Below, piece after piece: positions 25,783-61,475 of a stretch of 64,000 bases of DNA. Every line of letters begins with the position of its first letter. The first letter of the stretch is position 1. Under the pieces are notes generated by a model. It had not been told where the DNA came from and did no database searches. It saw only the letters and a program-made list of their open reading frames with translations. The position numbers and the translations under genes were made by a program. The DNA is from a bacterium (lineage in GTDB: Bacteria; Patescibacteriota; Dojkabacteria; JAKAPS01; JAJZLI01): NCBI GenBank assembly GCA_021846685.1, contig JAJZWL010000004.1, forward strand, positions 7,899 to 71,898, in the 5' to 3' direction.

Positions 25783-26071
25783 AAAATCTAACAAAATATT
25801 ATTAACACTTATATTTACGCTATTTTTAATAGTTGTAGGTCAATTGTATCTAATGAATAATATAGATTCATATAATTATACTGTAGAAAGATTAATATCT
25901 CAGTATAATACATATAATGTAAAGAATCAGAATCTTCAAGGAGAAATCTCTTCAAATCAATCATTAATTAGTATTAAAAATAATCTTTTGAAAAAGGGAT
26001 ATAAAAATGTAAATAACGTTAACTATACTCCTTCTAATGCATATAGTTTTAATGTATCATCATCCAAATGA
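25769..26071 (+). CDS. FtsL-like small bitopic cell-division protein
   Basis: 100 aa, one TM 'ILLTLIFTLFLIVVGQLYL'; positioned between rsmH and ftsI. Confidence 0.4.
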   Translation: MKKNKKSNKILLTLIFTLFLIVVGQLYLMNNIDSYNYTVERLISQYNTYNVKNQNLQGEISSNQSLISIKNNLLKKGYKNVNNVNYTPSNAYSFNVSSSK

Positions 26072-27789: not shown

Positions 27790-27830
27790 AACTTGATAAA
27801 TAGTTCTTTTTTTGCAATAATTTTCTCTAT

Positions 27831-29123
27831 ATGTATAAATTTGAAATAGAAGGACAACATCCTTTGTCTGGGGAAGTAAGTTTATTAGGTGGAAAAAATA
27901 ACGTCATTCCTATAATTTGTGCTACATTATTAACAGATCAACCTTGTATTATTAAAAATATTCCCAAAATATCTGATGTTAGAGTTTTAATAAAAATATT
28001 AAGAATTCTCGGATCAGACATAAAGTATATTACTCCTTCAGAACTTAAGATTGTTAATAAAAATTTATCTATAGATAAAGATAAAGAAAAATTAATATTT
28101 GAAAATATTCAAAAAATGAGAGGTTCTATATTATTAATAGCACCATTACTTTATAGATTTAAAAATATCTCATTTATACATCCAGGAGGGGATAAAATAG
28201 GAGGAAGAGATCTCTCTGCTCATTTTTCTGGATTCAAAAAACTTGGTGTAAATATTGAATTTACAAATACTAATTTTTCTCTTTCTGGTAATCTAAAACC
28301 TAATTATATCTTCTTATATGAACCATCAGTTACTGCAACAGAAAATCTTCTAATGCTAAGCGCTATTATAAAAGGAGAATCAATTATTGAAAATGCAGCC
28401 TGTGAACCTCATGTAAAAGATTTATGTATAATGCTAACCAAAATGGGTGTGCAGATTGAAGGAATCGGTACAAATATTTTAAAAATTAAAGGAGATCAAA
28501 ATCTATCTGGAGTAGACTTTACAGTATCTTCAGATGAAATTGAGGCTGCAACCTATATTATATTTGCGTTAATGTCTAAAGGTGAGATAAAAATACAAAA
28601 TATAGATACATTTGTTATGAAATCAATTTTTTATGTATTTGATATGTTTAATATAAAATATACAATTGGAGATAATTATATTTATATTAAAAATAAACAA
28701 GATTTATATTATAAAGGTAGTTTAGGATTTGGTAATTTAGGTATATATACCCATCCATATCCTGGGTTCCCTACAGATCTTCTGTCATTAGTGATATCAT
28801 TAGCTACGCAAGTTAAAGGTGAAGTAATATTTTTTGAAAAAATGTATGAGAATAGAATAGATTTTGCACTAGAACTGAAAAAAATGGGTGCAACATTTAA
28901 TATACTAGATACTCATAGAATTTTAGTAAAAGGCCCAGTAAAACTTCACTCAGCTAATATTTTTTCTAGAGATATAAGATCAGGAGTTGCTTATCTTTCT
29001 GCTATGTTATCTGCATCTGGTATAAGCACTTTAACTGGTATAGAAAATATAGATAGAGGATATCCTAATATTGAAAAAACATTAGATAGTCTAAATGCTA
29101 AAGTTAAAAGAATAAAGATATGA
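27831..29123 (+). CDS. murA: UDP-N-acetylglucosamine 1-carboxyvinyltransferase MurA
   Basis: 430 aa; 'FEIEGQHPLSGEVSLLGGKNNVIPIICATLL' matches the MurA N-terminal signature; EPSP-synthase fold length. Confidence 0.85.
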   Translation: MYKFEIEGQHPLSGEVSLLGGKNNVIPIICATLLTDQPCIIKNIPKISDVRVLIKILRILGSDIKYITPSELKIVNKNLSIDKDKEKLIFENIQKMRGSILLIAPLLYRFKNISFIHPGGDKIGGRDLSAHFSGFKKLGVNIEFTNTNFSLSGNLKPNYIFLYEPSVTATENLLMLSAIIKGESIIENAACEPHVKDLCIMLTKMGVQIEGIGTNILKIKGDQNLSGVDFTVSSDEIEAATYIIFALMSKGEIKIQNIDTFVMKSIFYVFDMFNIKYTIGDNYIYIKNKQDLYYKGSLGFGNLGIYTHPYPGFPTDLLSLVISLATQVKGEVIFFEKMYENRIDFALELKKMGATFNILDTHRILVKGPVKLHSANIFSRDIRSGVAYLSAMLSASGISTLTGIENIDRGYPNIEKTLDSLNAKVKRIKI

Positions 29124-29896
29124 AAAAAAGTTTAAGAAAAGTTATAAAAACTATTTTATCTAAATATTCAAAATTATTAATCCTAAAACATAGAATAAAA
29201 TTTATTACTATTTTTGGAAATTATAATCAAGATGTTGCAGTGGAGGGTATCTACTCAATACTTAAAGATAATGGAGTTAAGACGAGCCGTAATTATGTAG
29301 ATTTTGAAAAAGATATTGATGTTTCTTATTTTATTATAACTGATAAAGAAAATTTTACTTTTTTCGGATTCTTATATCTTTTAATAAAATATCCCATTAC
29401 TCTCTTTTCTAAGAAATATGATGATAAAGTAATAATATTAAATTTATCTACTTTTAATCCAGGAGTTGTTAAATATTATTCTGAATTTATACATTCTGAT
29501 ATCTTTTTACTCTTAGATGTTACTAAAAAATCTGTAATTTATGAAGATCAAATAATGAAAGATTCTCAAAAAGAAGCAATTGTTATAATCGATGGAGATA
29601 CTTCTTCTAGAAAAATGATAACCTTTGATTTTAATAAAAAAATATTAAGTTTTGGTACAAATCCTAGTAATGACATAATGTATAAAACATCTGCTTCAAA
29701 AATAGATATTACGTATAATGAGAACCATATAGAAATTCAGAATAATTTTAAAAATATAGATCCTAGAATACTTATAGCTTGTTTACTTACTAGTATTTCA
29801 TATGGAATTAGTTTTCATAATGCTGTTTCAAGTCTAGAAAAATTTTATATGCCAAATAGAGACTTTCAAAAAGTTTTTGAAAAATTCATGAAATAA
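29120..29896 (+). CDS. Hypothetical protein, possibly a degenerate Mur-ligase-like domain with a lost P-loop
   Basis: 258 aa; 'ITIFGNYNQD' sits where Mur ligases have GTNGKTT; a C-terminal A/S/G-rich helix resembles the Mur ligase middle-domain end; no intact ATP-binding motif. Confidence 0.25.
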   Translation: MKKSLRKVIKTILSKYSKLLILKHRIKFITIFGNYNQDVAVEGIYSILKDNGVKTSRNYVDFEKDIDVSYFIITDKENFTFFGFLYLLIKYPITLFSKKYDDKVIILNLSTFNPGVVKYYSEFIHSDIFLLLDVTKKSVIYEDQIMKDSQKEAIVIIDGDTSSRKMITFDFNKKILSFGTNPSNDIMYKTSASKIDITYNENHIEIQNNFKNIDPRILIACLLTSISYGISFHNAVSSLEKFYMPNRDFQKVFEKFMK

Positions 29897-29921
29897 GTAT
29901 ATTGTAGTATAGTATTAATAT

Positions 29922-31154
29922 ATGAAAAAGATATATCATTATTTGAAATCTAATGTATTGAGAGTGCCATTTATATTTGATAGATATAAATGTAAATTTA
30001 TAGCAGTTACAGGTACTGATGGGAAGACGACTGTATCAACATTATTGTATGATATGATGAAGAATGAAGGATTAAAAGTGGCATGTTTTACTACAATAGG
30101 TATAACTTATCCTGAAGGATTTATAGATACTGGGCTTCATACCACAACATTAGATACTCTTGAATTAAGAAAAAATCTTAAAAAATTTAAAAATTATGAT
30201 TTTGTAATCTTAGAAACAACTTCTCATGCTATTGATCAAAATAGAATTGCTGGATTAAAATTTAGTGCTATTTTATATACTAATATAACAGAAGATCATC
30301 TAGATTATCATAAAACTTGGGATAGATATGCATATGCCAAATCTAAATTAAAAAATTATTTAACTCATTCTGGTTTTGCTGTCATTAATATGGATGATGA
30401 AAAATCATTTAAATACCTAACAAATAGATTTACAAATATAAATTGCTATACATATTCTGTATATAAAAAAAATGCAACAATTAAAGCATTTAATGTGACA
30501 GAAAACAGTTTTGATGTTAAATTGGAAAATAAGACTTACTCTTTTAAAACTAAACTTTTTGGTGAATATAACATACAAAATTCATTACTATGTATATTTA
30601 CTGCATTAAAATTTGATATAAATGAATCTAGTATTCAAAAAAGTTTGCTATATCCTCCTTCAATAGAAGGTAGATTTGATGTTGTATCAAAAAAACCACT
30701 TATTATAGTAGATTTTGCACATACTGCTAATGCAATATATAATATCTTAGAAAATTTATCTGTTCTTAAAAAAAATGGTAAAAATAGATTAATTACAATT
30801 TTTGGTGCACCAGGAGATAGAGATAAATTTAAAAGACCTGATATGGGTAAAAATGCCTCTCTTTTTTCAGATATCATAATTATAACTGAAGATGATCCTC
30901 GTTTTGATAACCCAAAAGATATCTATACAGATATTGTACAGAATATAGATACTAAACTCTTTAAAAAAAATATTAATTTATATCAAATCGACAAGAGGGC
31001 AGATGCAATTAATTTTGCTTTAAAAATAGCACGAAAAAATGATATTATTGCAGTTTTAGGAAAGGGTCATGAAAAATCATTAGCAATCAAGGGAAAAGAA
31101 ATTCCTTGGTCAGATAAAGAATTTATTTTAAAAAAAATAAAAAATGGAAAATAA
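29922..31154 (+). CDS. murE: Mur ligase, MurE-like central + C-terminal domains (no recognisable N-terminal domain)
   Basis: 410 aa; P-loop 'AVTGTDGKTT' at residue ~30; 'GLHTTTLDT', 'ETTSHAIDQNR', 'TNITEDHLDYHKTWDRYAYAKSKL', 'DFAHTANA'. Confidence 0.6.
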   Translation: MKKIYHYLKSNVLRVPFIFDRYKCKFIAVTGTDGKTTVSTLLYDMMKNEGLKVACFTTIGITYPEGFIDTGLHTTTLDTLELRKNLKKFKNYDFVILETTSHAIDQNRIAGLKFSAILYTNITEDHLDYHKTWDRYAYAKSKLKNYLTHSGFAVINMDDEKSFKYLTNRFTNINCYTYSVYKKNATIKAFNVTENSFDVKLENKTYSFKTKLFGEYNIQNSLLCIFTALKFDINESSIQKSLLYPPSIEGRFDVVSKKPLIIVDFAHTANAIYNILENLSVLKKNGKNRLITIFGAPGDRDKFKRPDMGKNASLFSDIIIITEDDPRFDNPKDIYTDIVQNIDTKLFKKNINLYQIDKRADAINFALKIARKNDIIAVLGKGHEKSLAIKGKEIPWSDKEFILKKIKNGK

Positions 31155-32541
31155 AAGAATACATTTTATAGGTATATGCGGAAGTGCTATGGCTCCTATT
31201 GCCGTAGAAATGAAAAATAAAGGATTTAATGTTTCAGGTTCAGATAAAGGATTTTTCCCTCCTATATCTTTATATCTTGAAAAACACAATATGGGGATCC
31301 AACTCGGATATAAAAAAGAGCATATCACAGATGATATTAGTTTTGTTATTTTAGGAAATACTGTAGGAGAAAAGAATCCAGAATTTCTTGAAGCTAAGGA
31401 GAAAAATATACCAATATTGTCATATCCAGAACTTTTAGAACAATATCTTGTAAAAGAAAATTCAATTGTAATTACAGGTGAATATGGAAAGACAACTATA
31501 ACGTCATTTTTAGCTTTTGTATTTTCTAAGTTGAATATAAATCCTTCATATATGTATGGTGGAATATCTTTGAATCTTGATGATAGCGTAAAAATAAATG
31601 ATTCTAATTATTCAATTATTGAAGGAGATGAATATAATGCATCTCCAATAGATAAAAATTCCAAATTTCTATATTATCATCCCAAATATTTAATATTAAC
31701 ATCACTTTTGTGGGATCATGTAGATTTATTCCCAAAAGAATCTGATTATATTGATTCATTTAAAAAACTTATCTTAAAATTGCCAGAAGATGGTATTCTT
31801 TTTATTAATAAAGATGATATCAGTACTAATAAAATCTATCCTATATCTAATAAAAATATAAAAATCATAAATTATTCTGTTAAAGATAAAAGTACAGAAT
31901 ATTATGGTGAAATTGTAGAATATAAAGATGGTGTAATCAAATTTTTGGTTAATAATACCTATAAATTTGAAACACCTCTCTTGGGAGAACATAATATATC
32001 TAATCTTGTTGCAGGAATATCTCTGTGTCTTACACTTGGTATTGAATACAATAATTTATATTCAGTAGTCAAAGAATTTTTAGGAGCAAAAAGAAGATTG
32101 GAAATAAGATATAGATCAGATAAACTAATTGTTATTGATGATTTTGCTCATTCTCCTTATAAAATCAAAGCTTCAATCCAAGCTGTAAAAAAAAGTTTTC
32201 CAAATTCTAATATTATCTCAATTTTCGAACCACATTCTATGAGTTCAAGAGATAAAAAAACAATACAGTGGTATGAAAATATTTTTAATAATTCAGATAA
32301 AGTTATAATTACTGATATATATAAAAAAGAAGCTTTATCAGAAATCACAAGATTAAATAGTGAAGATATAGTTAAAGTAGTAAGAAATAATGTTCAAAAC
32401 ACTATATATACAAAGAATATAGATCTTATTGATTCAATAGAATCATCATTAACAGGGAATGATATAGTTTTATTTATGTCTTCTGGAAGTTTTCAAGGTA
32501 TGTTAGAGAAATATGTAAATAAACTAATTAGTTCTAAATAA
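31144..32541 (+). CDS. murC: UDP-N-acetylmuramate--L-alanine ligase MurC (or Mpl-type murein peptide ligase)
   Basis: 465 aa; 'IHFIGICGSAMAPIAVEMKNKGFNVSGSD' MurC N-terminal Rossmann; 'ITGEYGKTTITS' P-loop. Confidence 0.75.
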   Translation: MENKRIHFIGICGSAMAPIAVEMKNKGFNVSGSDKGFFPPISLYLEKHNMGIQLGYKKEHITDDISFVILGNTVGEKNPEFLEAKEKNIPILSYPELLEQYLVKENSIVITGEYGKTTITSFLAFVFSKLNINPSYMYGGISLNLDDSVKINDSNYSIIEGDEYNASPIDKNSKFLYYHPKYLILTSLLWDHVDLFPKESDYIDSFKKLILKLPEDGILFINKDDISTNKIYPISNKNIKIINYSVKDKSTEYYGEIVEYKDGVIKFLVNNTYKFETPLLGEHNISNLVAGISLCLTLGIEYNNLYSVVKEFLGAKRRLEIRYRSDKLIVIDDFAHSPYKIKASIQAVKKSFPNSNIISIFEPHSMSSRDKKTIQWYENIFNNSDKVIITDIYKKEALSEITRLNSEDIVKVVRNNVQNTIYTKNIDLIDSIESSLTGNDIVLFMSSGSFQGMLEKYVNKLISSK

Positions 32542-48164: not shown

Positions 48165-48346
48165 TTCTATTTAATCTTTTTATGAAGAACTTTAGCTTAT
48201 TGTATACTAATTTACCTCGAAACTCAATTCATATCTTTTGCTTTAATATCAAAGTATATGGGTAATTAGTCCTATACTTAAAAACTATTTACATATTTTA
48301 TTGATTGCAATAATATATTTTATTTGTTATATTCTTTTATTATATT

Positions 48347-48420
48347 GGCCCTGTCGTCTAGTGGCCTAGGACATCAGGTTTTCATCCTGGAAATCGCGGG
48401 TTCGAATCCCGCCAGGGTCA
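48347..48420 (+). tRNA. tRNA-Glu (anticodon UUC)
   Basis: Acceptor GGCCCTG/CAGGGTC (one G-U), D-arm GTC-TAGTGGCCTAG-GAC, anticodon stem TCAGG/CCTGG with loop TTTTCAT (UUC), T-arm GCGGG-TTCGAAT-CCCGC; near-identical in architecture to canonical bacterial tRNA-Glu. Confidence 0.85.
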
Positions 48421-48499
48421 ATTAACGCGACACCCCCACTTGAAACATCCCGAATGTATTGATAGAACCTGCCTACAAGTGCGGTTCATTATCGAAAGT
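48421..48499 (+). repeat. Island repeat copy A: the tRNA-Glu downstream flank supplies the 3' module of the repeat unit
   Basis: 'attaacgcgacaccccc-acttgaaacatcccgaatgtattgatagaacctgcctacaagtgcggttcattatcgaaag'; about 85% identical to the 3' part of copy D (58985-59058). Confidence 0.7.
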
Positions 48500-51447: not shown

Positions 51448-53082
51448 CTATTTGATACTTATTGTTTGTTCTATACTTAGATTTTGAATAAATTCTCTAT
51501 CATGAGAAACAACAAGTAAGGCTCCCCTGTACGATGAAATTGCAGTTTCTAGAGCATCAGTAGTTGTTATATCTAAATTATTTGTAGGCTCATCCAGTAT
51601 TATAATATTAGATTGATTTGCTACTATTCCTGCCAGTATAATTTTTGCTCTTTCTCCTCCACTCAATTTATATGCAGGAGTATATGTAATAGATTGTCTC
51701 TCAATATTGAATTTTACTAATAAATGCATTATTTCATTTTGTGGTATATTGGGGCATAAAGTTCTTAGATTGTCTAGTGCATTGGAGTTCATTAGCGGTA
51801 ATGATTGATTTTGATCAATATATCCTATACGTATGGAAGGGCTTAACCTTATTTGTCCTTCTTTAATAAATTTATTACTTCCAAGAACAGCATTAATAAT
51901 TGAAGTTTTGCCACTGCCATTATTACCAATTAATGCAATTCTTTCTTTTCCATATATATTAAAACTTATTGGCCCAATAGTTGATATAGAATTATTATGA
52001 GTATATTCAATAACTAAATTTTCAACACTAATTAATCTATTGCTAGAATCTAATTTTTCAGGCTCTGTAAATGTGAAATTAAGACTAATTGGTTCTTCAG
52101 GAGGATCTACTCTTTTCACTTGTTCAGATTTAGTTTTTAAAGAAGTTAACCTACTCGATATACTATTGCTAGCCTTTTCCTTACGAAAATTTGTATTTAA
52201 TTTATCATTGTCAGTTCTTGATCTGTTAGAACTTACTGATACAACATTACTATTCATCTTCTTTATTTGCTTTTCAATTTGTTTGCATTTTTTTACATAT
52301 TGATCGTGATGATGGGTGTCAGATTCGTACCTATTTTTTTTAGCCTCGACATATTCATCATATCCAAGAGTATATTCTTGAACACCATTATTTCCTCCAA
52401 GCAACTCAATTATTTTTTTTGATGCATTTCTCAAAAAACGTCTATCATGTGATACTAATACAAAACTTGCACTAGAGTGTTCTATATATGTTTCTAGTAC
52501 TATAATTCCTTCCTGGTCTAAATTATTAGTAGGTTCATCTAATAATAATAAATCATGTTTATCTGCAAAAATAGCAGCGAGCGCAATTTTAGTACGTTGT
52601 CCGCCTGAAATTTCTCCAAGACGAAGATTAGTATCAATTTCTCCCACACCAGCCTTTTTTAATGATTTTTTTAATCTCTGATGAAAATTATATACTTCTA
52701 GTTGAGTATATTTATCTTGAGCTTCTTGATAAATAAGTAGTACATTATCGTCCTCTTTTTCTGTAGATAGTTTATTACAAGCTTCCTCAAATTTATTTCT
52801 AGCTTCTTGTACCCCAGTGGTTTCTTCTATAAAATCATATACGGTATGGTCTAGCCAAGTACTAAAATCTTGTGGCATTAATCCAATTCGTAATCTCTCT
52901 GGATTAATAATTTCTCCACTTGTTGGTTGTATGTCTCCAACTAAAATTTTTAGTAATAAACTTTTTCCTACTCCGTTATCTCCAATCAATCCTATACGAT
53001 CTTTTGGATTAATATTAAAGTCTATATTAGAGAATATTTCTTTTCCATCAGTTTCATAACCGACCTCATGTACATTTAACAT
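51448..53082 (-). CDS. ABC-F family ATPase (tandem ABC domains, no TMD)
   Basis: 544 aa; domain 1 Walker A 'GDNGVGKS', signature 'ISGGQRTKIALA', Walker B 'LLLLDEPTNNLD'; domain 2 Walker A 'GNNGSGKTS', signature 'LSGGERAKIILA', Walker B 'IIILDEPTNNLD'; about 70-aa K/S/R-rich interdomain linker. Confidence 0.8.
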   Translation of the reverse strand: MLNVHEVGYETDGKEIFSNIDFNINPKDRIGLIGDNGVGKSLLLKILVGDIQPTSGEIINPERLRIGLMPQDFSTWLDHTVYDFIEETTGVQEARNKFEEACNKLSTEKEDDNVLLIYQEAQDKYTQLEVYNFHQRLKKSLKKAGVGEIDTNLRLGEISGGQRTKIALAAIFADKHDLLLLDEPTNNLDQEGIIVLETYIEHSSASFVLVSHDRRFLRNASKKIIELLGGNNGVQEYTLGYDEYVEAKKNRYESDTHHHDQYVKKCKQIEKQIKKMNSNVVSVSSNRSRTDNDKLNTNFRKEKASNSISSRLTSLKTKSEQVKRVDPPEEPISLNFTFTEPEKLDSSNRLISVENLVIEYTHNNSISTIGPISFNIYGKERIALIGNNGSGKTSIINAVLGSNKFIKEGQIRLSPSIRIGYIDQNQSLPLMNSNALDNLRTLCPNIPQNEIMHLLVKFNIERQSITYTPAYKLSGGERAKIILAGIVANQSNIIILDEPTNNLDITTTDALETAISSYRGALLVVSHDREFIQNLSIEQTISIK

Positions 53083-53199
53083 AATGTCATAATTATATCA
53101 TATAATACGGTTAAATATCAGCGATTGTACGAGGTAAATAGTTTTAAAGCTTAGAAAGGAAGGTGTTTATATGGGATACTCATATTTTTTGATATTTAT

Positions 53200-53313
53200 A
53201 ATCCAGACTAAAAGCGGTTCGATCTGAGGCATCTTAAGGTCAATTAACAAGGTATCCCCTATGAAAACATCTCAAATGTATTGATATACTAGGAAACATG
53301 CGCGGTTCGAAAT
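53200..53313 (+). repeat. Island repeat copy B (full unit)
   Basis: 'aatccagactaaaagcggttcgatctgaggcatcttaaggtcaattaacaaggtatcccctatgaaaacatctcaaatgtattgatatactaggaaacatgcgcggttcgaaat'. Confidence 0.75.
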
Positions 53314-53372: not shown

Positions 53373-54452
53373 TTGTACTACATTATGGATAATCACGGAA
53401 GATTTAATAAGAGACTAGAAAGCATTACATCAGATATATATCTAAAGATATCTAAAACCGATGAGCTCAAAGGTATGTGGATTGGAGGCATGAAATTAAG
53501 TCCTCAAACACTTGGTAGACTTAAACAGTCGGCCCTAATAACCTCAACAGGAGCTTCAACCAGAATTGAAGGATCAGGACTATCTGATGAAGAGATTGAG
53601 AAAGTTATTAAAGGCATAAAAATTCAAAATTTTAGAAATAGAGATGAGCAAGAAGTGAAAGGATACTTCGAGCTTCTAGAAAATGTATTTAATAATTTTA
53701 ATACTTTAACTTTCAATGAAAACTGTATTAAATCTTTTCACAATGAACTTCTAAAATATGTAGAAAAGGATCAATCACATAAAGGAGAATATAAAAATCT
53801 ACCTAACCATGTTGAGCTAATAGATGAACCTAATAATATTGTAGAGGTGATTTTTGAAACTACACCTCCATATTTAGTTTCTCACCAAATGCATTCTCTT
53901 GTAGAATGGACTCAAAATGCTTTACTCGCGAAGAAATATCACCCATTATTAGTGATTGGAAATTTTATTGTTGAATTTTTGAAGATTCATCCGTTTCAGG
54001 ATGGAAATGGTAGGTTATCAAGAATATTAACTAGTTTTTTATTATTAAAGGAGGGATATAAATATGCAGAATATAGCTCTCACGAAAAGTTGATAGAAGA
54101 AAATAAACAAGAATATTACCTCTCTTTGATGAAAAGTCAAAAAACTTTCAACAAAAAAATGGAAAATATTCTACCTTGGATGAATTTTTTTATAGATATT
54201 ATGATTAAGCAAGCTCAATATGCTGTTGATTTTGGATCAAATGATAACATAGAATCTTTACTTACTAAGATACAGTTGAAAGTTTGGGAATATATATCTA
54301 AAGTAGGGGAAGCAAGTCCTAAAGATATATCTCAAAACACTGATATAGGAAGGGATACGCTAAGGCAGGTATTAAATAAATTAATTAAGTTAAAGAAAGT
54401 TGAAAAATTGGGACAAGGAGTGGGAACTTACTATAGAATAATAAAAGATTGA
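53373..54452 (+). CDS. Fic-family AMPylase (class II, N-terminal inhibitory helix) with C-terminal winged-HTH
   Basis: 359 aa; canonical Fic motif 'HPFQDGNGRLSR'; upstream 'STRIEG' fits the S/T-x-x-x-E-G inhibitory-helix motif; C-terminal HTH-like 'DISQNTDIGRDTLRQVLNKLIKLKKV'; ends with TGA. Confidence 0.85.
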   Translation: MYYIMDNHGRFNKRLESITSDIYLKISKTDELKGMWIGGMKLSPQTLGRLKQSALITSTGASTRIEGSGLSDEEIEKVIKGIKIQNFRNRDEQEVKGYFELLENVFNNFNTLTFNENCIKSFHNELLKYVEKDQSHKGEYKNLPNHVELIDEPNNIVEVIFETTPPYLVSHQMHSLVEWTQNALLAKKYHPLLVIGNFIVEFLKIHPFQDGNGRLSRILTSFLLLKEGYKYAEYSSHEKLIEENKQEYYLSLMKSQKTFNKKMENILPWMNFFIDIMIKQAQYAVDFGSNDNIESLLTKIQLKVWEYISKVGEASPKDISQNTDIGRDTLRQVLNKLIKLKKVEKLGQGVGTYYRIIKD

Positions 54453-54491
54453 AAAAATTCATCATTTTAAATATACTTTTATCAATTTAAT

Positions 54492-54546
54492 AATCCAAAC
54501 TAAAAGCGGTTCGATCTGAGGCACCTTAAGGTCAATTAACGCGACA
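54492..54546 (+). repeat. Island repeat copy C (5' module plus start of 3' module)
   Basis: 'aatccaaactaaaagcggttcgatctgaggcaccttaaggtcaattaacgcgaca'; contains the 10-bp palindrome ACCTTAAGGT (54523-54532). Confidence 0.75.
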
Positions 54547-54817
54547 AATTCACTAAAATCATATATGACAATAAAAACAAATCGTATTTAATTCACATAG
54601 AGTATTTATAATTTCATGATTGTTTTACAATTATTTTTTAATACCATATATTGGTCAGACAAGACTTTTTGTATAAGTCCACATATATTTATTGTTGTCA
54701 AACCATCAAGATTGAGAATGAAAATTAACAAAAACAGGAGAGTTTTCTATAGTCTTTATTGGTATTCTCATATATGTAAGTTTCTCTGGTTTTATGGTAT
54801 AATTCAGATTAATAATT

Positions 54818-55873
54818 ATGGAAACACAAGAGTCATTAGTATATCATCAAAATGAATTAAAAATTTATGAACCCTCTGTTCTTCAAGATTTACAGATGAG
54901 GGTGTTAGATAGCCCGAGTGAGGATACTTCTGTTTGGTTTCCAATTCCTAGAGAAGGGGAGGTTTCTTATGAATCTAGAATTGATATAGATAGTATAGAT
55001 ATTACCACAGAATATGTCGATGCACTAAATAATTATTTAGATAGGGCATTAGATGATTTTACTGGATTTAGCAAACCTAAATGTGATGGTTTTGTTGTCG
55101 CACTGTCTGGTGGTTTAGATTCAGCAGTTTCAACAGAATTACTTAACAAATATTGTAAAGCCAAGGGGTGTAATTTAAAAATATTGGTAATGGGGGAAGG
55201 AGACCATAATGAATATATCGATAGATATTTAGGAACTCCTGCAGAATGGATAGATATCCAGTATGCAAAATTAATGTGTCAAGAAAATAATTTAGATTTT
55301 GAATATTTAGATATAACTAGAGACATTAAAGCATTAAGAGATAGATATACAAAAAAATGGGCTATAAGTGGACAATTACCAAGATTGAGAGCAAATCATT
55401 TATACGCAATGGCTGAGGAACATGATTTAATATCTGTTGGAACTACTAATGGATCAGAATACATTTTGGCTGCATTTTCTACAGGTGGTCCAGCCGGAAA
55501 TATTGCACCATTATTAGATTTATATAAAACTGAAGTATATGCCATAGCTCGTGATATTGGAATTCCTAAATATATTCAGGAGAGAATGCCTTTAATAAAT
55601 GAATTAAATCTACCAGACAATAGTTTTTATGGCAGAACAGTAGATTCAACTATTTTAGATCCAATAATTAGAAGACTATGGTTTCATAAACAAAACCCAA
55701 TTAAGGTAGCAAAAGAATTAGGTCATTCCGAAAGATGGGTTCGAGATATTGATGAAAAGAGAATAAAGGGAGAATCCTGCAGAAGAAATTACAAAGGTCT
55801 TTTAATTAATAGAGGTTTTCATTTTGAAGATTTATCCCCAGATTTGTTTGTTGATAGGTCATATTTTATATAG
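54818..55873 (+). CDS. NAD+ synthetase (NadE)-like PP-loop ATP pyrophosphatase
   Basis: 351 aa; PP-loop 'VVALSGGLDSAVS'; NadE-like 'ISGQLPRLRANHLYAMAEEHDLISVGTTNGSEYILAAFSTGGPAGNIAPLLDLYKTEVYAIARDIG'; ~60-aa N-terminal extension. Confidence 0.65.
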   Translation: METQESLVYHQNELKIYEPSVLQDLQMRVLDSPSEDTSVWFPIPREGEVSYESRIDIDSIDITTEYVDALNNYLDRALDDFTGFSKPKCDGFVVALSGGLDSAVSTELLNKYCKAKGCNLKILVMGEGDHNEYIDRYLGTPAEWIDIQYAKLMCQENNLDFEYLDITRDIKALRDRYTKKWAISGQLPRLRANHLYAMAEEHDLISVGTTNGSEYILAAFSTGGPAGNIAPLLDLYKTEVYAIARDIGIPKYIQERMPLINELNLPDNSFYGRTVDSTILDPIIRRLWFHKQNPIKVAKELGHSERWVRDIDEKRIKGESCRRNYKGLLINRGFHFEDLSPDLFVDRSYFI

Positions 55874-55879
55874 ATTATA

Positions 55880-56728
55880 ATGAAAATATCATTCTTCCAA
55901 TACTTACCAGAATTTAATAATTTACAAGAGAATATAGCAAATATAGTATCTTTAATTCAAAAGAATAAAGAAAATATACTTAAAACTGATATATTAGTTT
56001 TTCCAGAATATTCTTTTTCTGGACCATTAAATTTAGATAATTTTGAGAATTATAAAAAACAAATAACTGATATGTCAGTTATTTCTATTTTAGAGAAAAT
56101 ATCCAAAGAATTAAAAGGTGTTACCATAATATTTGGTTCAATGATTTTGCCCATGAAAAATAAAACATTCGCAAATACATCTATGGTATTTAAAAATGGT
56201 AAGATTGTTGGAACATATGACAAAAAAGCATTGATATACAATGAAAATTATATTTGTACTGCATCTAAAAAATACTTAAAGTTCAATGTGGGTAAATATA
56301 AAATTGGGTTAGCTATATGTTGGGATCTAATTCTTCCAGAAGTGTTTAGAAATTATGTAAATGAAATTGATCTTATTATAATTCCAAGTTTTTGGGGGAT
56401 AGGAGGTAATTTATTGCAATCAAAGTATAAGTTTTCATTAGAAAAAAAATATTATAGACAATTGTGTGTATCTAGAGCATATGAGAATGCATTTGCTTTA
56501 TTATTTGTAAATTCAGTAGGAGAATATAAATCTTCTTTTTATACAGATAGAATGATGGGCGGAAGTTTAGCTATTATGCCTCCGTTGGGTGAGGTATATT
56601 TTTCGAATGACAAGAATCCCAATAATATTCATATTATTGAAATGGATTTTAAATTTTTAAAAGAATATAGAGAATATTATGCAACTGATAAAGACTTTAA
56701 ATATTATAAATCTAAAAATATTTTCTAA
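55880..56728 (+). CDS. Carbon-nitrogen hydrolase (nitrilase superfamily; glutaminase-type)
   Basis: 282 aa; catalytic triad context 'VFPEYSF' (Glu), 'TYDKKALIY' (Lys), 'GLAICWDLILPE' (Cys). Confidence 0.7.
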   Translation: MKISFFQYLPEFNNLQENIANIVSLIQKNKENILKTDILVFPEYSFSGPLNLDNFENYKKQITDMSVISILEKISKELKGVTIIFGSMILPMKNKTFANTSMVFKNGKIVGTYDKKALIYNENYICTASKKYLKFNVGKYKIGLAICWDLILPEVFRNYVNEIDLIIIPSFWGIGGNLLQSKYKFSLEKKYYRQLCVSRAYENAFALLFVNSVGEYKSSFYTDRMMGGSLAIMPPLGEVYFSNDKNPNNIHIIEMDFKFLKEYREYYATDKDFKYYKSKNIF

Positions 56729-57790
56729 ATGGCTAAATATATTTTTTATAAACAAAAATTAATTGATAATATAAATATGCTAAAAGATGCTTATAAATCT
56801 AAAGGTATAAATTTTAAGATTTATTATTCAGTAAAAACCAATCCTTCTGATTGTGTTTTAGAAATTATTAACAATGAAAATTGTAATTTTGAAGTTGTAT
56901 CTTATGATGAATGGCTTTCAGTAAAAAAATATAATCCTACAACTTTAGTACTTAATGGACCTTCTAAAGATATAAAAATACTTAAAAATATATTTGACTG
57001 TAATGTGAAAGAGCTATATTTTAATATAGATAATGATACAGATTTTGACATTATAGATAGTATTGATAATATATATACCGATAAATTAAAACTTGGTGTA
57101 AGAGTATATCTTGATAAAACTGGCATATGGAATAGATTTGGATTTGATATTGATTCTCCTAGATTAGTTCAAATTATAAAAAAATATCGAGATAAGATTA
57201 ATGGTTTCCATTTTCATTTTTCAACAAACAATTTTAATTTTGAAAATTATCTTCAGATTATGACTAAAATAAATAATTTAATAGATAAATACCAATTAAA
57301 CTTAGAATATATAGATATTGGAGGAGGGTTTCCTGGTGCAAGTGAAGAGATGTATTCTAATATTATATACAATAAATTACCTGATTTAATAAAAACAATG
57401 ATGCCTGATAATATTACAATTATATCTGAGGTAGGTAGAAATCTAATTGAAGATACTTTTAATATGAAAACGAGTGTTATTTCTAAGAAGAAAATATCTG
57501 AAGACAAATTTGATATAGTTATTGATACAAATATACTACATTTTCCATGTTATTGGGAGAAAAAATTTGGTATTGACTATATAGTTAAAAATGCTAATAA
57601 AGATCAAAAGCCTATAAATATAAATATTTTTGGAAACTCTTGTATGCAAATTGATAAAATAGCAGATAATTTTTTGATAGCTTGTGAACCAAATATAAAT
57701 GATAATGTTATAATATCTAAAATAGGAGCATATTCTGTCTCGCAGGCTTCTAATTTTATTACAAAAATACCAAATATAGTAATTTCATAA
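56729..57790 (+). CDS. PLP-dependent decarboxylase, fold III (Orn/DAP/Arg decarboxylase family)
   Basis: 353 aa; 'YYSVKTNP' PLP-Lys motif, 'GFHFHFSTN', 'IDIGGGFPGA' Gly-rich motif, 'EVGRNLIED', conserved C-terminal Cys 'GNSCMQID'. Confidence 0.7.
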   Translation: MAKYIFYKQKLIDNINMLKDAYKSKGINFKIYYSVKTNPSDCVLEIINNENCNFEVVSYDEWLSVKKYNPTTLVLNGPSKDIKILKNIFDCNVKELYFNIDNDTDFDIIDSIDNIYTDKLKLGVRVYLDKTGIWNRFGFDIDSPRLVQIIKKYRDKINGFHFHFSTNNFNFENYLQIMTKINNLIDKYQLNLEYIDIGGGFPGASEEMYSNIIYNKLPDLIKTMMPDNITIISEVGRNLIEDTFNMKTSVISKKKISEDKFDIVIDTNILHFPCYWEKKFGIDYIVKNANKDQKPININIFGNSCMQIDKIADNFLIACEPNINDNVIISKIGAYSVSQASNFITKIPNIVIS

Positions 57791-57799
57791 ATTAATAAA

Positions 57800-58879
57800 A
57801 TGTCAAATTTTTTAGTAACAGATATAAAAGTCATAGATAGTCCTCAGGCTGGAATAGGCGTAGCTAGGTGTTTAAAAACTTTGGGTCATAAAGTATATGG
57901 GATTGACGATACTCCATTTGTAACAAACTCAGATTTATTTGAAGCTGTTTTTGTTATAGAAGAGATTAGAACTCTTAATTTAGATAATTTAGTAAAAAAA
58001 TTAATTAATATAAAAAATTTATATCATATTGATTACATTATTCCTTGTTATGATGAAACATCAATCCTTCTTTCTTATATAAAAGATAAATTGAATTATA
58101 TTGGAATACAACTTATTGCTCCAGATATTGAAGTGATAAAGAGATTAAAAAAAGAAAATTTGGTAAATACATTTTCTGGTATTAATAATAAGCAATTATT
58201 GATACCAGAAACAAAAGTAATATCTTCTATTAAAGAAGCTGAAAATTATGCTATGCAAATTAATTATCCCCTTGTTGTTAAAGGAATGACTAAAGGTGTA
58301 AAAATTGTAGAAAATAGCACAGAATTGCCTAGTGCAATAAAATATATATGTAATATTTGGAATAATGGTGAAATTCATTGTATTATTCAAAAGTTTATAC
58401 AAGGGAAATCAATAAATGCATTATTATCCTATAAAGATGAAAGAATAGTTTCTTATTTAGAAATGGAAAAGATAGCATTAGATTCTAATGGTGCAACTTG
58501 GTTTGGGAAGCTCACTTCAGATAAAAATATATTTAATGTTATAGCTGATTTTTGCAAGTATATAAAATTAAATAATTCTATAATTGAAATAGAAACGATT
58601 TTAACAGAACAAGGAAAGTATTATGTTTATGAAATTAATTATAGACCACCGGCTTGGATCTATTCCCCAGCATTAAATGGACAAAATTTCTTAGATATAT
58701 TCTTAAATCCACAAAAAACAGTAATATTTAATAATATAAATGCCTTTTTTGGTAGAGAATCTAATGACTTTGTGAAACCTTTAGAAGATATCTCTCAATA
58801 TGAAGATTTACAATTTTATGCTAAAGGAGCTGCATATAAAAATGATAATCAAAAGTATCCTTCTGAAATTATGATTTGA
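57800..58879 (+). CDS. ATP-grasp family ligase
   Basis: 359 aa; 'YPLVVKGMTKGVKIV', 'IIQKFIQGKSINAL', 'YYVYEINYRPP' (E-x-N Mg-binding motif). Confidence 0.55.
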   Translation: MSNFLVTDIKVIDSPQAGIGVARCLKTLGHKVYGIDDTPFVTNSDLFEAVFVIEEIRTLNLDNLVKKLINIKNLYHIDYIIPCYDETSILLSYIKDKLNYIGIQLIAPDIEVIKRLKKENLVNTFSGINNKQLLIPETKVISSIKEAENYAMQINYPLVVKGMTKGVKIVENSTELPSAIKYICNIWNNGEIHCIIQKFIQGKSINALLSYKDERIVSYLEMEKIALDSNGATWFGKLTSDKNIFNVIADFCKYIKLNNSIIEIETILTEQGKYYVYEINYRPPAWIYSPALNGQNFLDIFLNPQKTVIFNNINAFFGRESNDFVKPLEDISQYEDLQFYAKGAAYKNDNQKYPSEIMI

Positions 58880-58942
58880 ATAAGAATATTAAATTAGTGT
58901 AATAATTGGTGGTTGATTGTCAAATATTTTTACTAATTTCAC

Positions 58943-59058
58943 AATCCAAACCAAAAGCGGTTCGATCTGAGGCACCTTAAGGTCAATTAACGCGACACCC
59001 TCTGTAGAAACATCTCGAATGTATTGATGGAACTTGCTTACAAGTGAGATTTGAAATG
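58943..59058 (+). repeat. Island repeat copy D (full unit)
   Basis: 'aatccaaaccaaaagcggttcgatctgaggcaccttaaggtcaattaacgcgacaccctctgtagaaacatctcgaatgtattgatggaacttgcttacaagtgagatttgaaatg'. Confidence 0.8.
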
Positions 59059-59072
59059 CTAATGGAAAATTA

Positions 59073-59366
59073 TTAATTATAAACTTTTTTGTTTCCTGAG
59101 TGTCCACCTATGGTCAAAGCTATGATAGTAGTTCTGTTATCAAAAAAATCCCAAATAATCCGTAGATCTCCAGTTACTCTTGAACTATATCTTATACCAT
59201 AATTTCTTGTATTTACTTTATGTGTTTTTAGGTTACTAGAGAAAGGGTTTTCTGTAAGTATTATGATTTTTTGATCAATTATTTTTTTTAAATTTGTATT
59301 TCCTTTTACATATTTTCTATAAGATCTTTCAAATTCTTTTGTTATAGTAAAATCATATATTTTCAT
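59073..59366 (-). CDS. RelE/ParE-superfamily type II toxin (mRNA interferase-like)
   Basis: 97 aa; 'TGDLRIIWDFFDNRTTIIALTIGGHS' matches the RelE/YafQ C-terminal pattern; 6 nt downstream of the putative antitoxin gene on the same strand. Confidence 0.55.
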   Translation of the reverse strand: MKIYDFTITKEFERSYRKYVKGNTNLKKIIDQKIIILTENPFSSNLKTHKVNTRNYGIRYSSRVTGDLRIIWDFFDNRTTIIALTIGGHSGNKKVYN

Positions 59367-59372
59367 ATAGTC

Positions 59373-59663
59373 TTATTTACTTATTTTGTTAAGATGATCT
59401 TTGATCTGGCTTGTAGATTTCAATCTTGTTACTCTTCCTGTTTCAATATCATCTAATGCTCTTCCAATACTTTCTTCGGTTTCTAAGTCAACCATAGGAA
59501 TATCTTTATATAATGGTTTAATATCTTCAATTACTAGGTGCCTTACATATTCAGGAGTAGAGATGCCTAACTGTTCAAGTCTGATCTTTATTAATTCAAA
59601 TAAAGGTTGTGGAAATCCCACTTGTCTTACAACTGTATTTTGTGTTTGATTATTTTTACTCAT
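59373..59663 (-). CDS. Putative antitoxin of the RelE-like toxin
   Basis: About 97 aa from 'MSKNNQT' (the track ORF is extended to 59702); small, upstream of and co-oriented with the toxin. Confidence 0.4.
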   Translation of the reverse strand: MSKNNQTQNTVVRQVGFPQPLFELIKIRLEQLGISTPEYVRHLVIEDIKPLYKDIPMVDLETEESIGRALDDIETGRVTRLKSTSQIKDHLNKISK

Positions 59664-59746
59664 AATTATATAAATGTATTGTAGCACATGTGTAACAAGC
59701 ATTCAACATACATCTATAACTATTTGTATATTTCTATTACTTTAGT

Positions 59747-59839
59747 GATCCAAACTAAAAGCGGTTCGATCTGAGGCAACTTAAGGTCAATTAACTCGAT
59801 ATCACATGTTTGAAACGTTCCAAATATATTGATGAAATC
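59747..59839 (+). repeat. Island repeat copy E
   Basis: 'gatccaaactaaaagcggttcgatctgaggcaacttaaggtcaattaactcgatatcacatgtttgaaacgttccaaatatattgatgaaatc'. Confidence 0.75.
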
Positions 59840-59989
59840 TTATTTTCATAGGTATATTCTGATATTTTTCTTTATTTTTACTAATTATCCTTATCAATTA
59901 TTGATGAAGAATTTAGAGTGTCATATCACTATCGTCAACCTGAATTCTCCGATATTGACAATTATTGGATAATATATCATAATTAGTAC

Positions 59990-61243
59990 ATGGAAGAAAC
60001 ATTATATATGCAAAATCCTTGGTGGATGAATAGAGAATTTAATATAGGGATAATAAGAAAACAATCTCTTGATAAATTAAAAAGTATGGCTTTAAATAAT
60101 AAAGTTACAATGTTACTTGGAGGGAGACGTGTAGGAAAAACTTTTTTGATATATCAATATATAGATTATCTTTTAAAATCAAGAATAAAAGAAAAAAATA
60201 TACTATATTTACTTTTAGATACAAGGGCATTTGAAGATATAACAATTGTTAATTTACTAAGAGAATATAGAAAAATTCATAATCTTAGTATAGATGAGAA
60301 AATATATATTTTCTTAGATGAGATTCAATATAAAGATTCATGGGAGCAAGAAGTAAAGAATCTTTATGATACTGAGCCAAATATACAAATAGTTTTATCT
60401 GGATCTGCAAGTTTTAAAATTCATACAAAAACATCTTTTCTAACAGGTAGATATGAAATTATGAATTTATATCCTTTAAATTTTTTAGAATGGATAGGCA
60501 TTAGAGGTATTAAAATTCTTCCATCTGAGAGTTATAAATATCAAAATGAATTAAATGAATATTTATTTAAAGGAGGATATCCAGAATATGTTATTAAAGA
60601 GGATCCACAATATTTTCCTAATCTTGTAGACAGTATTGTATATAAAGATTTTGTAGAATATTTTAATATTAAAAATTTAGATATTGTTAAAGACTTATTT
60701 AAATTACTTTCAGATAGGACAGGGTCTCATTCAAGTCTTTCAAAAATAGGAAATATTCTGTCTATAAGCAAAGAAACAGTGAGGGAATATATATATGCTT
60801 TAAAGGGAAGTTTTTCTGTATATGAATTACAACGTTATTCTTCAAGCAGGAATGAGAGAATATATTTTGCTAAAAAATACTATTTAAATGATAATGGATT
60901 ACAATTTAATCAATCTGGTAAATTTAATAAAGGTCAATCTGCAGAGAGAACTTTATTTGATTATTTATATAAAAAATATTCAGATTCAATTTATTTCTAT
61001 TATGATAATAAAGTAGAAGTAGATTTTATATTGAAATATCATGATAGATTAGAACTGATAGAGTCTAAATACATAAATGATATTTCTGATTTTAATCCAA
61101 AATCTCTTCTAAAGGCAATGAAATCATTAGATGTAACTAATGCTACTGTTATCACAGAATCTATTGAAGAAGAATTAGTATTTGATGAAAAAAAGATAAT
61201 ATTTATTCCTTTATGGAAAGTTTTGGTAAAGCAAATTATATAA
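59990..61243 (+). CDS. AAA+ ATPase of the AAA_14/DUF4143 type
   Basis: 417 aa; Walker A 'LLGGRRVGKTFL', Walker B 'IFLDEIQY'; C-terminal domain of DUF4143-like length. Confidence 0.7.
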   Translation: MEETLYMQNPWWMNREFNIGIIRKQSLDKLKSMALNNKVTMLLGGRRVGKTFLIYQYIDYLLKSRIKEKNILYLLLDTRAFEDITIVNLLREYRKIHNLSIDEKIYIFLDEIQYKDSWEQEVKNLYDTEPNIQIVLSGSASFKIHTKTSFLTGRYEIMNLYPLNFLEWIGIRGIKILPSESYKYQNELNEYLFKGGYPEYVIKEDPQYFPNLVDSIVYKDFVEYFNIKNLDIVKDLFKLLSDRTGSHSSLSKIGNILSISKETVREYIYALKGSFSVYELQRYSSSRNERIYFAKKYYLNDNGLQFNQSGKFNKGQSAERTLFDYLYKKYSDSIYFYYDNKVEVDFILKYHDRLELIESKYINDISDFNPKSLLKAMKSLDVTNATVITESIEEELVFDEKKIIFIPLWKVLVKQII

Positions 61244-61303
61244 ATTATTCATAATTTTTTAATTAGATATAGTAAAAATCTAGATTACTTTTATCATTTT
61301 AAT

Positions 61304-61350
61304 AATCCAAACTAAAGGGGTTAGATCTATGGCACACCAAGGTCAAGTGA
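61304..61350 (+). repeat. Island repeat copy F (degenerate)
   Basis: 'aatccaaactaaaggggttagatctatggcacaccaaggtcaagtga'; shares the extended left context 'cttttatca-ttt-aataatcc' with copy C. Confidence 0.55.
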
Positions 61351-61475
61351 TGCTACAATTCTGGATCAAATAGTATGTTATTAAATGGTGCTCAAAGACA
61401 AACTATTGGAGCTTTTGAAAAAAGGTATTTGAAAAATAGGGATTGATCAATAATTCTATCTTTGGAATAGGAGTT

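Follow-up and report, generated by a model that had tools for sequence, protein, structure and literature searches.

Is a nadE-like gene at the head of a compact operon a nicotinamide adenine dinucleotide (NAD) synthetase gene that lies beside unrelated genes, or does it belong to a different pathway altogether? The question is raised by four adjacent genes in a Dojkabacteria genome (assembly GCA_021846685.1, contig JAJZWL010000004.1), of which we analyzed a stretch of 64,000 nt, hereafter the window. The four genes, one of which is predicted to depend on pyridoxal 5'-phosphate (PLP), were identified as open reading frames (ORFs), the first three with Pfam assignments:

54818-55873, + strand: NadE-like PP-loop adenylating enzyme, 351 aa (PF02540)
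55880-56728, + strand: nitrilase-superfamily CN hydrolase, 282 aa (PF00795), a putative glutaminase (ammonia-supplying) subunit
56729-57790, + strand: PLP decarboxylase of the alanine racemase fold, FigC/FslC-like, 353 aa (PF02784)
57800-58879, + strand: ATP-grasp amide ligase, 359 aa, with a fold closest to 2pn1 and PylC

Our results reveal that these genes constitute a real, conserved, and mobile operon. We favor the view, with a probability of roughly 0.55, that the operon is self-contained and encodes a small-molecule pathway independent of nonribosomal peptide synthetases (NRPSs), in which ligation, decarboxylation, and amidation would lead to an amidated N-acyl-diamine. More tentatively, at somewhat under even odds, we suggest that one NadE-family branch no longer takes part in NAD metabolism and has become the carboxamide module of a mobile four-enzyme pathway, carried mostly by metagenome-assembled genomes (MAGs) of Patescibacteria, or candidate phyla radiation bacteria, and making a new amidated N-acyl-diamine from scavenged amino acids.

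The initial annotation of this locus had described a co-directional, tightly spaced operon, and the layout bears this out, with gaps of 6, 0, and 9 nt between the four genes. Specifically, the NadE-like protein matched NAD_synthase (PF02540) with 77.4 bits against a cut-off of 21, the hydrolase matched CN_hydrolase (PF00795) with 77.6 bits against 23.2, and the decarboxylase matched Orn_Arg_deC_N (PF02784) with 81.7 bits along with the C-terminal sheet domain at 22.9 bits. The ligase had a sub-threshold match to ATP-grasp_3 (21.3 bits). When the four proteins were compared with the named enzymes of NCBIfam, matches were weak and below cut-off, with the sole exception of TIGR00552 (see below). 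Furthermore, the motifs quoted in the initial annotation, from the SGGLDS of the NadE-like protein and the Glu-Lys-Cys triad of the hydrolase to the YSVKT, HFHF, GGG, and C305 of the decarboxylase, are all present and invariant across the respective families.

The same four genes recur elsewhere. Exact copies of the window genes are found on nine other contigs of the same organism, and the four-gene set, with its order unchanged, was found in at least 11 genomic contexts that are otherwise unrelated, where distant copies have 39-65% protein identity to those of the window and host GC content ranges from 27 to 51%. The order at all loci is constant: NadE-like gene, CN hydrolase, decarboxylase, and ATP-grasp ligase. 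Full cassettes are present on a 494-kb MAG contig (L010/L016), on a contig of 51% GC with neighbors of free-living type (L011), at L015, L018, L020, and L021, beside a ParE/MazE pair (L027/28), at L029-31 and L032/33, and on a 276-kb contig (L036/37). Two further loci keep the order with a qualification: at L017 the contig ends within the ATP-grasp gene, and at L012 a gene for a pentapeptide-repeat protein and another encoding 262 aa, with no annotation (L012:13128-15326), stand between the decarboxylase and the ATP-grasp gene. Flanking genes, as annotated with Pfam, are heterogeneous between loci, and an all-against-all comparison of ORFs from nine loci revealed no shared gene beyond the four. 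Because the same order recurs on many independent contigs, the arrangement is not due to chance, and the four genes can be regarded as strictly co-conserved. The carriers are labelled mostly as Patescibacteria, including Levybacteria and Staskawiczbacteria, while two MAGs are labelled "uncultured Gammaproteobacteria." At 90% identity, cassette-type families comprise about 90 clusters of ATP-grasp ligases and at least 120 clusters of decarboxylases. An exhaustive profile search of 1.84 billion representatives recovered only nine NadE-like proteins at E<=1e-30, and in the homologue search E-values jumped from 2e-69 to 1.7e-11. Thus, the NadE-like family is tiny, well separated, rare, and patchy in its distribution.

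One answer to our opening question is that the first two genes encode a housekeeping two-subunit, glutamine-dependent NAD synthetase that happens to lie beside unrelated polyamine and ligase genes. The NadE-like protein does have the NadE fold, and its top structural matches are all NAD or nicotinamide mononucleotide (NMN) synthetases. It passes the PF02540 cut-off and, narrowly, that of the equivalog-domain model TIGR00552 (nadE; 67.2 bits against 63.65), and a synthetase-then-glutaminase operon has a precedent in Thermus thermophilus. We therefore compared residues in a MAFFT alignment of 19 family members and 23 canonical NadEs, taking residue roles from PMC3376133 (De Ingeniis et al. 2012, Table S4) and using, in addition, a HMMER alignment to Pyrococcus horikoshii NadE (2e18). 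The SGGLDS motif is invariant across the family, and the site for ATP, pyrophosphate (PPi), and the first magnesium ion (Mg-I) is intact: S97, G98, G99, D101, S102, R191, E214, and K237 are invariant in the family and in canonical NadE, and Arg139, Glu162, and Lys186 (Bacillus subtilis numbering), which bind ATP, PPi, and Mg-I, are present. Not all of the residues that contact nicotinic acid adenine dinucleotide (NaAD) are retained, however. Eight canonically conserved positions, seven of which line the NaAD site, have changed family-wide to other residues that are themselves conserved within the family. In B. subtilis numbering, these positions are:

Asn133, NaAD pyrophosphate: N in 23/23 canonical sequences, G/S185 in the family
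Phe/Tyr167, N-ribose: Y in 23/23 canonical sequences, A219 in the family (19/19)
Asp173, listed under ATP ribose: D in 23/23 canonical sequences, G224 in the family (19/19)
Thr208, second magnesium ion (Mg-II): S/T in canonical sequences, L259 in the family
Leu211, nicotinic moiety: L in 23/23 canonical sequences, E262 in the family (19/19)
Glu223, N-ribose: E/D in canonical sequences, L/F270 in the family
His257, NaAD adenine: F/H in canonical sequences, S/T320 in the family
Lys258, NaAD pyrophosphate: K in 23/23 canonical sequences, C/A321 in the family

Asp173 is an aspartate in all 11 NAD synthetases of Table S4 (PMC3376133). The NaAD-site residues that are kept are R189 (Arg137), Y196 (Tyr144), I205 (Leu153), and a mostly basic residue at position 88 (K/R88, corresponding to Y32/K20), and part of this set is also in the dimer interface. 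Because the ATP site is kept while eight canonical positions, including Asp173 and the pyrophosphate ligands Asn133 and Lys258, are replaced throughout the family, it is very unlikely on sequence grounds that the protein serves as a housekeeping NAD synthetase. Other observations argue in the same direction. The full-length NadE equivalogs fail by a wide margin (NF010587, 77.3 bits against a cut-off of 255; NF001979, 35.3 against 250; NF010588, 27.7 against 479), the four genes travel together and share no further neighbor across loci, and the family is not only rare but in the window lies in an accessory island. No second nadE was found within the 64-kb window. Of the two outcomes that the initial annotation had said would refute its reading, retention of all NaAD contacts and lack of co-conservation of the four genes, neither was observed.

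The NadE-like protein also differs from canonical NadE at its ends. An N-terminal extension of about 60 aa had been noted in the initial annotation, and the comparison agrees, putting it at about 50-60 aa: 82-104 residues precede the PP-loop serine in the family, compared with 28-59 in 22 of the 23 canonical NadEs (107 in P0036). The extension is ordered, was modelled with high confidence in the predicted structure, and contains an invariant W-x-P-x-P motif. At the other end, the C-terminal tail after R322 has a constant length of 28-29 residues (33 in P0027), versus 7-25 in the 23 canonical single-domain NadEs. Some JGI records of relatives name the protein "NAD+ synthase"; since the family passes the TIGR00552 and PF02540 cut-offs, it is mislabelled in this way by automated annotation.

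Related proteins were encountered in the course of these comparisons. A second NadE-like paralogue of 332 aa (23% identity) is encoded at L029:2557-3555 on the - strand, and also in L030 and L031, where it is divergently transcribed directly upstream of the cassette; it has a degenerate PP-loop (S-G-I-D-S) and the N-terminal extension pattern of the family. In addition, a set of NadE-like proteins of about 300-350 aa (P0349-P0365) carry an N-terminal extension, lack the canonical Asp of the G-D-G motif, and score 95-140 bits against the family profile, which suggests a larger, uncharacterized group of NadE relatives that would not act on NaAD.

If the NadE-like enzyme forms a carboxamide, the adjacent hydrolase is a candidate for its ammonia supply. 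The two genes are neighbors at every locus, and in 10 CN hydrolase orthologues E43, K115/K116, E122, and C147 are invariant, leaving the Glu-Lys-Cys triad intact. The family profile matched the PDB entry for PH0642 (1j31) best (63.6 bits), followed by a Pyrococcus nitrilase (59.9) and yeast Nit3 (50.0), with 43 bits for N-carbamoylputrescine amidase and 40.7 bits for the glutamine-dependent NAD synthetase 5kha. NCBIfam scores were similarly flat across nitrilase branches (de_GSH_amidase, 53.6; nitrilase_Arch, 50.7; PRK13981, 50.3; N-carbamoylputrescine amidase, 47.9). On the basis of adjacency and precedent, the hydrolase is probably a glutaminase. The initial annotation had proposed a repurposed, ammonia-channelling amidotransferase. 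The loss of the NaAD site agrees with the repurposing, but it is adjacency that suggests the channelling, because the hydrolase has no specific affinity to the glutaminase domains of NAD synthetases.

The decarboxylase offers an indication of what kind of substrate the pathway might handle. Motifs YSVKT, HFHF, GGG, and C305 are invariant across the family, as is the catalytic set K36, H163, G198-200, E234, R237, C305, and Y335 in 12 orthologues. In a single-sequence search, ornithine decarboxylase (ODC) of Entamoeba histolytica and FigC tied at about 80 bits. With a 12-member family profile, the N-citrylornithine decarboxylase FigC/FslC (7kh2) scored 146.4 bits (E 1e-41), followed by diaminopimelate decarboxylases (DAPDCs; 96.4 bits), ODCs (about 88), and BtrK (50.7). 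The alignment shows that YSVKT, NGPxK, W[NS]RFGF, and SCMQxD are common to the family and FigC, with the loop reading GNSCMQID here versus GPSCMQHD in FigC. In ODC the catalytic cysteine is followed by aspartate (C-D) and in DAPDC by C-E-S, the acidic residue having a role in binding the free distal amine. The corresponding loop of the cassette family is C-M-Q-[I/V]-D throughout, with no acidic residue directly after the cysteine. Neither TIGR01048 (lysA; 89.6 bits against a cut-off of 297.9) nor the curated FigC-type model NF041039 (94 against 500) accepts the protein. Three residues that contact citrate in FigC are changed (H357 to I/V308, R387 to Q339, N389 to S/A341), and the nearly invariant K278 and K279 occupy the specificity-helix position of FigC Y331. 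FigC, SbnH, AcsE, MccE, and BtrK belong to one subfamily, which uses conjugated amino acids as substrates and has no connection to the synthesis of polyamines (PMC7857480). The partner of FigC-type enzymes in NRPS-independent siderophore (NIS) synthesis, a NIS synthetase, is absent at all cassette loci examined; the ATP-grasp ligase is found instead. Thus, where the initial annotation spoke of an amino acid decarboxylase, the PLP enzyme class was correct, but judged by its sequence the enzyme is FigC-like rather than a plain amino acid, ornithine, or diaminopimelate decarboxylase. As we interpret it, the substrate is acylated on the distal amine and perhaps has an anionic group, but is not citryl-ornithine.

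These features also bear on an alternative in which the cassette is a variant polyamine pathway. Here, an ornithine or arginine decarboxylase together with a hydrolase resembling N-carbamoylputrescine amidase would make a diamine, which the ATP-grasp enzyme would then conjugate to a glutathionylspermidine-like or gamma-glutamyl-polyamine product. The weak similarity of the hydrolase to N-carbamoylputrescine amidase fits this idea, as do an S-adenosylmethionine (AdoMet) decarboxylase gene (L029:8224-8541) about 0.5 kb downstream of the cassette in L029-31 and a spermidine-synthase-like gene (L036:17991-18605) 6 kb downstream in L036. Yet such neighbors occur in these two contexts only, no agmatine deiminase is present, and the NadE-like enzyme would be left without a role. 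Given also that the decarboxylase lacks the acidic residue beside its catalytic cysteine and falls beside FigC, in a clade with no link to polyamine biosynthesis, we consider a polyamine pathway unlikely.

The ATP-grasp ligase has the expected fold, and its phosphate-binding lysine and Mg-binding E-x-N motif are intact. The nearest structures, the structural-genomics entry 2pn1 and PylC (4ffl), have 14-15% sequence identity and form small-molecule amide bonds; PylC joins its amide on the side-chain amine of lysine. Among the metagenomic proteins, P0207 (499 aa) matches both the decarboxylase and the ATP-grasp families and may be a fusion or a frameshift artefact.

Assembled into the amidated N-acyl-diamine pathway that we favor, the four enzymes would act in three steps. 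In the first, the PylC-like ligase would couple a carboxylic acid, which probably bears a further anionic group, to a diamino acid (ornithine or lysine, for example) through its distal amine. In the second, the FigC-like decarboxylase would strip the alpha-carboxylate from the resulting N-acyl amino acid to give an N-acyl-diamine; it is the likeness to FigC that would place ligation before decarboxylation. In the third, the NadE-derived PP-loop enzyme would adenylate a remaining carboxylate and convert it to a carboxamide, with ammonia probably drawn from glutamine by the adjacent CN hydrolase in the role of a separate glutaminase subunit. This would yield an amino acid/polyamine amide conjugate, which might function as an antimetabolite, a signal, or an envelope modifier.

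An argument can be made against several parts of this scheme. The NadE-like protein does pass TIGR00552, if narrowly, and because the universal Asp173 is missing, amidation itself is not certain; the enzyme might be a ligase that accepts an amine. The hydrolase is no closer to the glutaminase domains of NAD synthetases than to Nit/omega-amidase or carbamoylase types and could instead hydrolyze an intermediate of the pathway. Moreover, its reading frame is interrupted at L010:11060-11904 (equivalent to L016) and at L012:11103-12060, which may reflect a frameshift, sequencing or assembly error, decay, or a gene that is dispensable. The altered citrate contacts of the decarboxylase leave the acyl group without a specific candidate, and no transporter, carrier protein, or regulator is common to the loci.

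The genomic setting of the operon supports the idea of a mobile cassette. It lies in an island at a tRNA-Glu gene, between direct repeats of about 90-150 nt, all in one orientation:

48346-48486, + strand: tRNA-Glu(UUC) and the adjoining 65 nt (ARAGORN, Rfam, repeat family D3), the presumed island anchor
53181-53310, + strand: repeat R1, between the ABC-F and Fic genes
54473-54562, + strand: repeat R2, left flank of the operon, family D1, core AATCCAAACTAAAAGCGGTTCGATCTGAGGCACCTTAAGGTCAATTAAC
58924-59051, + strand: repeat R3, right flank of the operon, families D1 and D3
59728-59860, + strand: repeat R4, between a YafQ-type toxin-antitoxin pair and an AAA_14/DUF4143 gene
61286-61380, + strand: repeat R5, degenerate, after the AAA_14/DUF4143 gene, family D2

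Repeats R2 and R3 have 86% identity over 90 nt, and the same figure holds between the right half of R3 and the sequence after tRNA-Glu. This right half abuts and overlaps the 3' end of the tRNA gene (48414-48486), and the tRNA-Glu region and the repeats share GGTCAATTAACGCGACACCC...TACAAGTGNGNTT. The 37-mer core has four matches with at most one mismatch (0 expected) and is absent from the rest of the window. The order of modules is His_Phos, rve integrase, a hypothetical gene, and ABC-F; R1; Fic; R2; the four-gene operon; R3; the YafQ toxin-antitoxin pair; R4; AAA_14/DUF4143; and R5. Because repeats bracket the operon in the tRNA-Glu island and its flanks differ in every other genome, the mobile character that the initial annotation ascribed to the cassette is supported. 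The repeat is specific to contigs of the same organism, with 0 matches to its core in JGI metagenome contigs. Just upstream of the cassette, tRNA genes are also found in L015 and L032. The repeat-bracketed array resembles an integron or a tandem-islet structure. We considered an integron gene cassette in the strict sense, and this assignment fails for lack of an attC-type hairpin and an IntI tyrosine recombinase in the window: the repeats gave no Rfam match, no convincing consensus fold or attC-like hairpin, and no covariation or compensatory changes, and the window contains the rve DDE integrase but no tyrosine recombinase.

The sequence immediately around the operon yielded little else. An ORF of 79 aa (54616-54855) and the start of the first gene overlap. 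Contigs of the same species have this ORF annotated as a gene, but it has no counterpart at any other cassette locus compared and is probably spurious. At the 27% GC of the window, a promoter and terminator scan was uninformative (50 promoter-like sites versus 39.6 expected, and a single terminator-like site, inside a gene), and upstream of the cassette no riboswitch or leader matched Rfam in the window island or at eight other loci.

The neighbors of the operon in the island are as follows:

51448-53082: ABC-F-like ATPase (PADLOC mad3-like, 148 bits)
53373-54452: Fic protein (SoFic, 125 bits)
59073-59702: YafQ-type toxin with an upstream antitoxin-sized ORF
59990-61243: AAA_14/DUF4143 protein (PDC-S01, 226 bits)

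Given this company, the cassette could be imagined as part of an anti-phage or conflict system acting by depletion or modification of NAD or some other nucleotide, a link that the initial annotation had raised. The neighbors in the window belong to defense-associated families, the ParE/MazE pair adjoins the L027 cassette, and HIT and NUDIX genes flank the cassette in L036/37. But most other loci lie amid housekeeping genes, and all four enzymes are of biosynthetic types. When searched against PADLOC-DB 2.0, three of the four proteins had no match, while the fourth, the CN hydrolase, matched only the nitrilase part of a DRT model (19.5 bits), a generic domain similarity. Furthermore, no cassette was found in IMG/VR viral contigs, which held one unrelated weak ATP-grasp match, or in the plasmid collection, which held distant decarboxylases alone (23-25% identity). 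We found no evidence for NAD+ depletion, and a role in defense strikes us as highly improbable.

Neighborhoods elsewhere bring the bacterial envelope to mind. It is possible that the three enzyme activities modify UDP-MurNAc-peptide, lipid II, or a uronic acid of the cell surface, for example by amidating D-Glu or meso-diaminopimelate (mDAP), decarboxylating the free D-center of mDAP to yield lysine, or adding a side chain by way of the ATP-grasp enzyme. Each of these reactions has an analogue, namely, PP-loop amidation of mDAP by AsnB/LtsA-type enzymes, LysA chemistry at a free D-center, and the ATP-grasp D-Asp ligase Aslfm. A cell wall and division cluster (MraW, FtsI/PBP2, MurA, and two Mur ligases) is located at 24871-32541 of the window, from which we conclude that the organism makes peptidoglycan. 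In addition, the L010 cassette adjoins ftsA-murG-ftsW-mraY, a PBP1 gene is found 2.4 kb downstream of the L020 cassette, and L032 has a Glycos_transf_4 gene in the vicinity. Such neighborhoods are not conserved, however, and no Mur-type, flippase, or glycosyltransferase partner is common to the loci. Since the decarboxylase is clearly nearer to FigC than to diaminopimelate decarboxylases, and the distribution is that of a rare, accessory trait, tailoring of envelope precursors appears rather unlikely.

Other neighbors are scattered. The HIT and NUDIX hydrolase genes of L036 (7697-8071 and 12181-12615) are on the cassette strand, and dehydrogenase genes lie upstream of the cassette in L011 and L032. 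Together with the AdoMet decarboxylase and spermidine-synthase-like genes, the HIT and NUDIX neighbors may be hints of a polyamine- or nucleotide-linked function or may reflect chance in dense genomes; none of the contextual hints (AdoMet decarboxylase, HIT/NUDIX, dehydrogenases) recurs broadly.

The superfamily of each enzyme, the two-subunit organization of NadE, FigC-type decarboxylases, and PylC-type ligases are all known already. We found no paper describing the four-gene set or a NadE homologue with such an acceptor site, and none of the Pfam, NCBIfam, or PADLOC models or solved structures describes either. To our knowledge, NadE-family enzymes amidate nicotinate nucleotides only; the chemistry of the family would be extended by a conserved subfamily whose acceptor pocket has been rebuilt. 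At a practical level, such a subfamily would flag a systematic annotation error, the "NAD+ synthase" label in public records. The Patescibacteria are regarded as having almost no capacity for biosynthesis. If our interpretation is right, the cassette would represent a rare case of specialized small-molecule biosynthesis in symbionts with minimal genomes, possibly directed against hosts or competitors or used to modify the cell surface, and, as a mobile pathway of four enzymes that draws on amino acids, ATP, and glutamine, it would make such metabolism accessible and clonable.

Comparison with known systems helps to place the cassette. In Thermus thermophilus, TTC1538-TTC1539 encode a two-subunit glutamine-dependent NAD synthetase, the synthetase gene preceding the nitrilase-like gene, and a lengthened C-terminal loop is the signature of glutaminase-partnered synthetases (PMC3376133). 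Like the Thermus pair, the cassette has a single-domain NadE-type gene followed directly by a separate nitrilase-like gene in one operon, with the core of the short NadE branches (P. horikoshii, Helicobacter pylori, and Francisella types). The gene order fits the Thermus model, and the C-terminal tail, compared with those of canonical single-domain NadEs, may do so as well. Consequently, the separate genes in reversed order to which the initial annotation had drawn attention are real but, in light of the Thermus arrangement (PMC3376133), not unusual. What sets the cassette apart is that the NadE-like family lacks Asp173, Asn133, Lys258, the aromatic residue at 167, Thr208, Leu211, and Glu223; that it has the N-terminal extension and a constant link to a decarboxylase and an ATP-grasp ligase; and that its hydrolase shows no particular relationship to the glutaminase domains of NAD synthetases. 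We consider a housekeeping NAD synthetase of the Thermus type very doubtful. The NMN synthetase of Francisella tularensis (3fiu) still acts on a nicotinate nucleotide, whereas here the contacts to nicotinate and ribose are replaced; the canonical NadE sequences compared, 3fiu not among them, all keep the GD(G) motif.

For the ligation and decarboxylation steps, parallels are found in other pathways. PylC and 2pn1 are relatives of the ATP-grasp ligase at the low identity given above, and no PylB or PylD partners are present here. Butirosin biosynthesis likewise combines an ATP-grasp ligase (BtrJ) with a decarboxylase of the alanine racemase fold (BtrK; 2j66, 7ru7) acting on a conjugated amino acid, but it needs the carrier protein BtrI, whereas no carrier is co-conserved with the cassette, and BtrK scored well below FigC (50.7 versus 146 bits). 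The dapdiamide pathway of Pantoea (DdaG/DdaH/DdaF) is also NRPS independent: a dicarboxylate is ligated to a diamino acid, an ATP-dependent glutamine amidotransferase turns the free carboxylate into a carboxamide, and a further amide bond is made by an ATP-grasp ligase. The cassette shares this logic of ligase, amidotransferase, and ATP-grasp enzyme, but DdaH is AsnB type rather than NadE type, dapdiamide synthesis has no decarboxylase, and the sequence relation is at the superfamily level at most. Rhizoferrin synthesis by FigA/FigC (FslA/FslC) provides the counterpart for the order of steps, since an acid is ligated to the distal amine of ornithine and decarboxylation follows (PMC7857480). 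The cassette differs in having an ATP-grasp partner rather than a NIS synthetase, in the added amidation module, in the lack of siderophore export and uptake genes, and in the nonconserved citrate-binding residues H357, R387, and N389. Pairing a FigC-like decarboxylase with an ATP-grasp ligase, the cassette would thus be a new variation on the "ligate, then decarboxylate" scheme of NIS siderophores.

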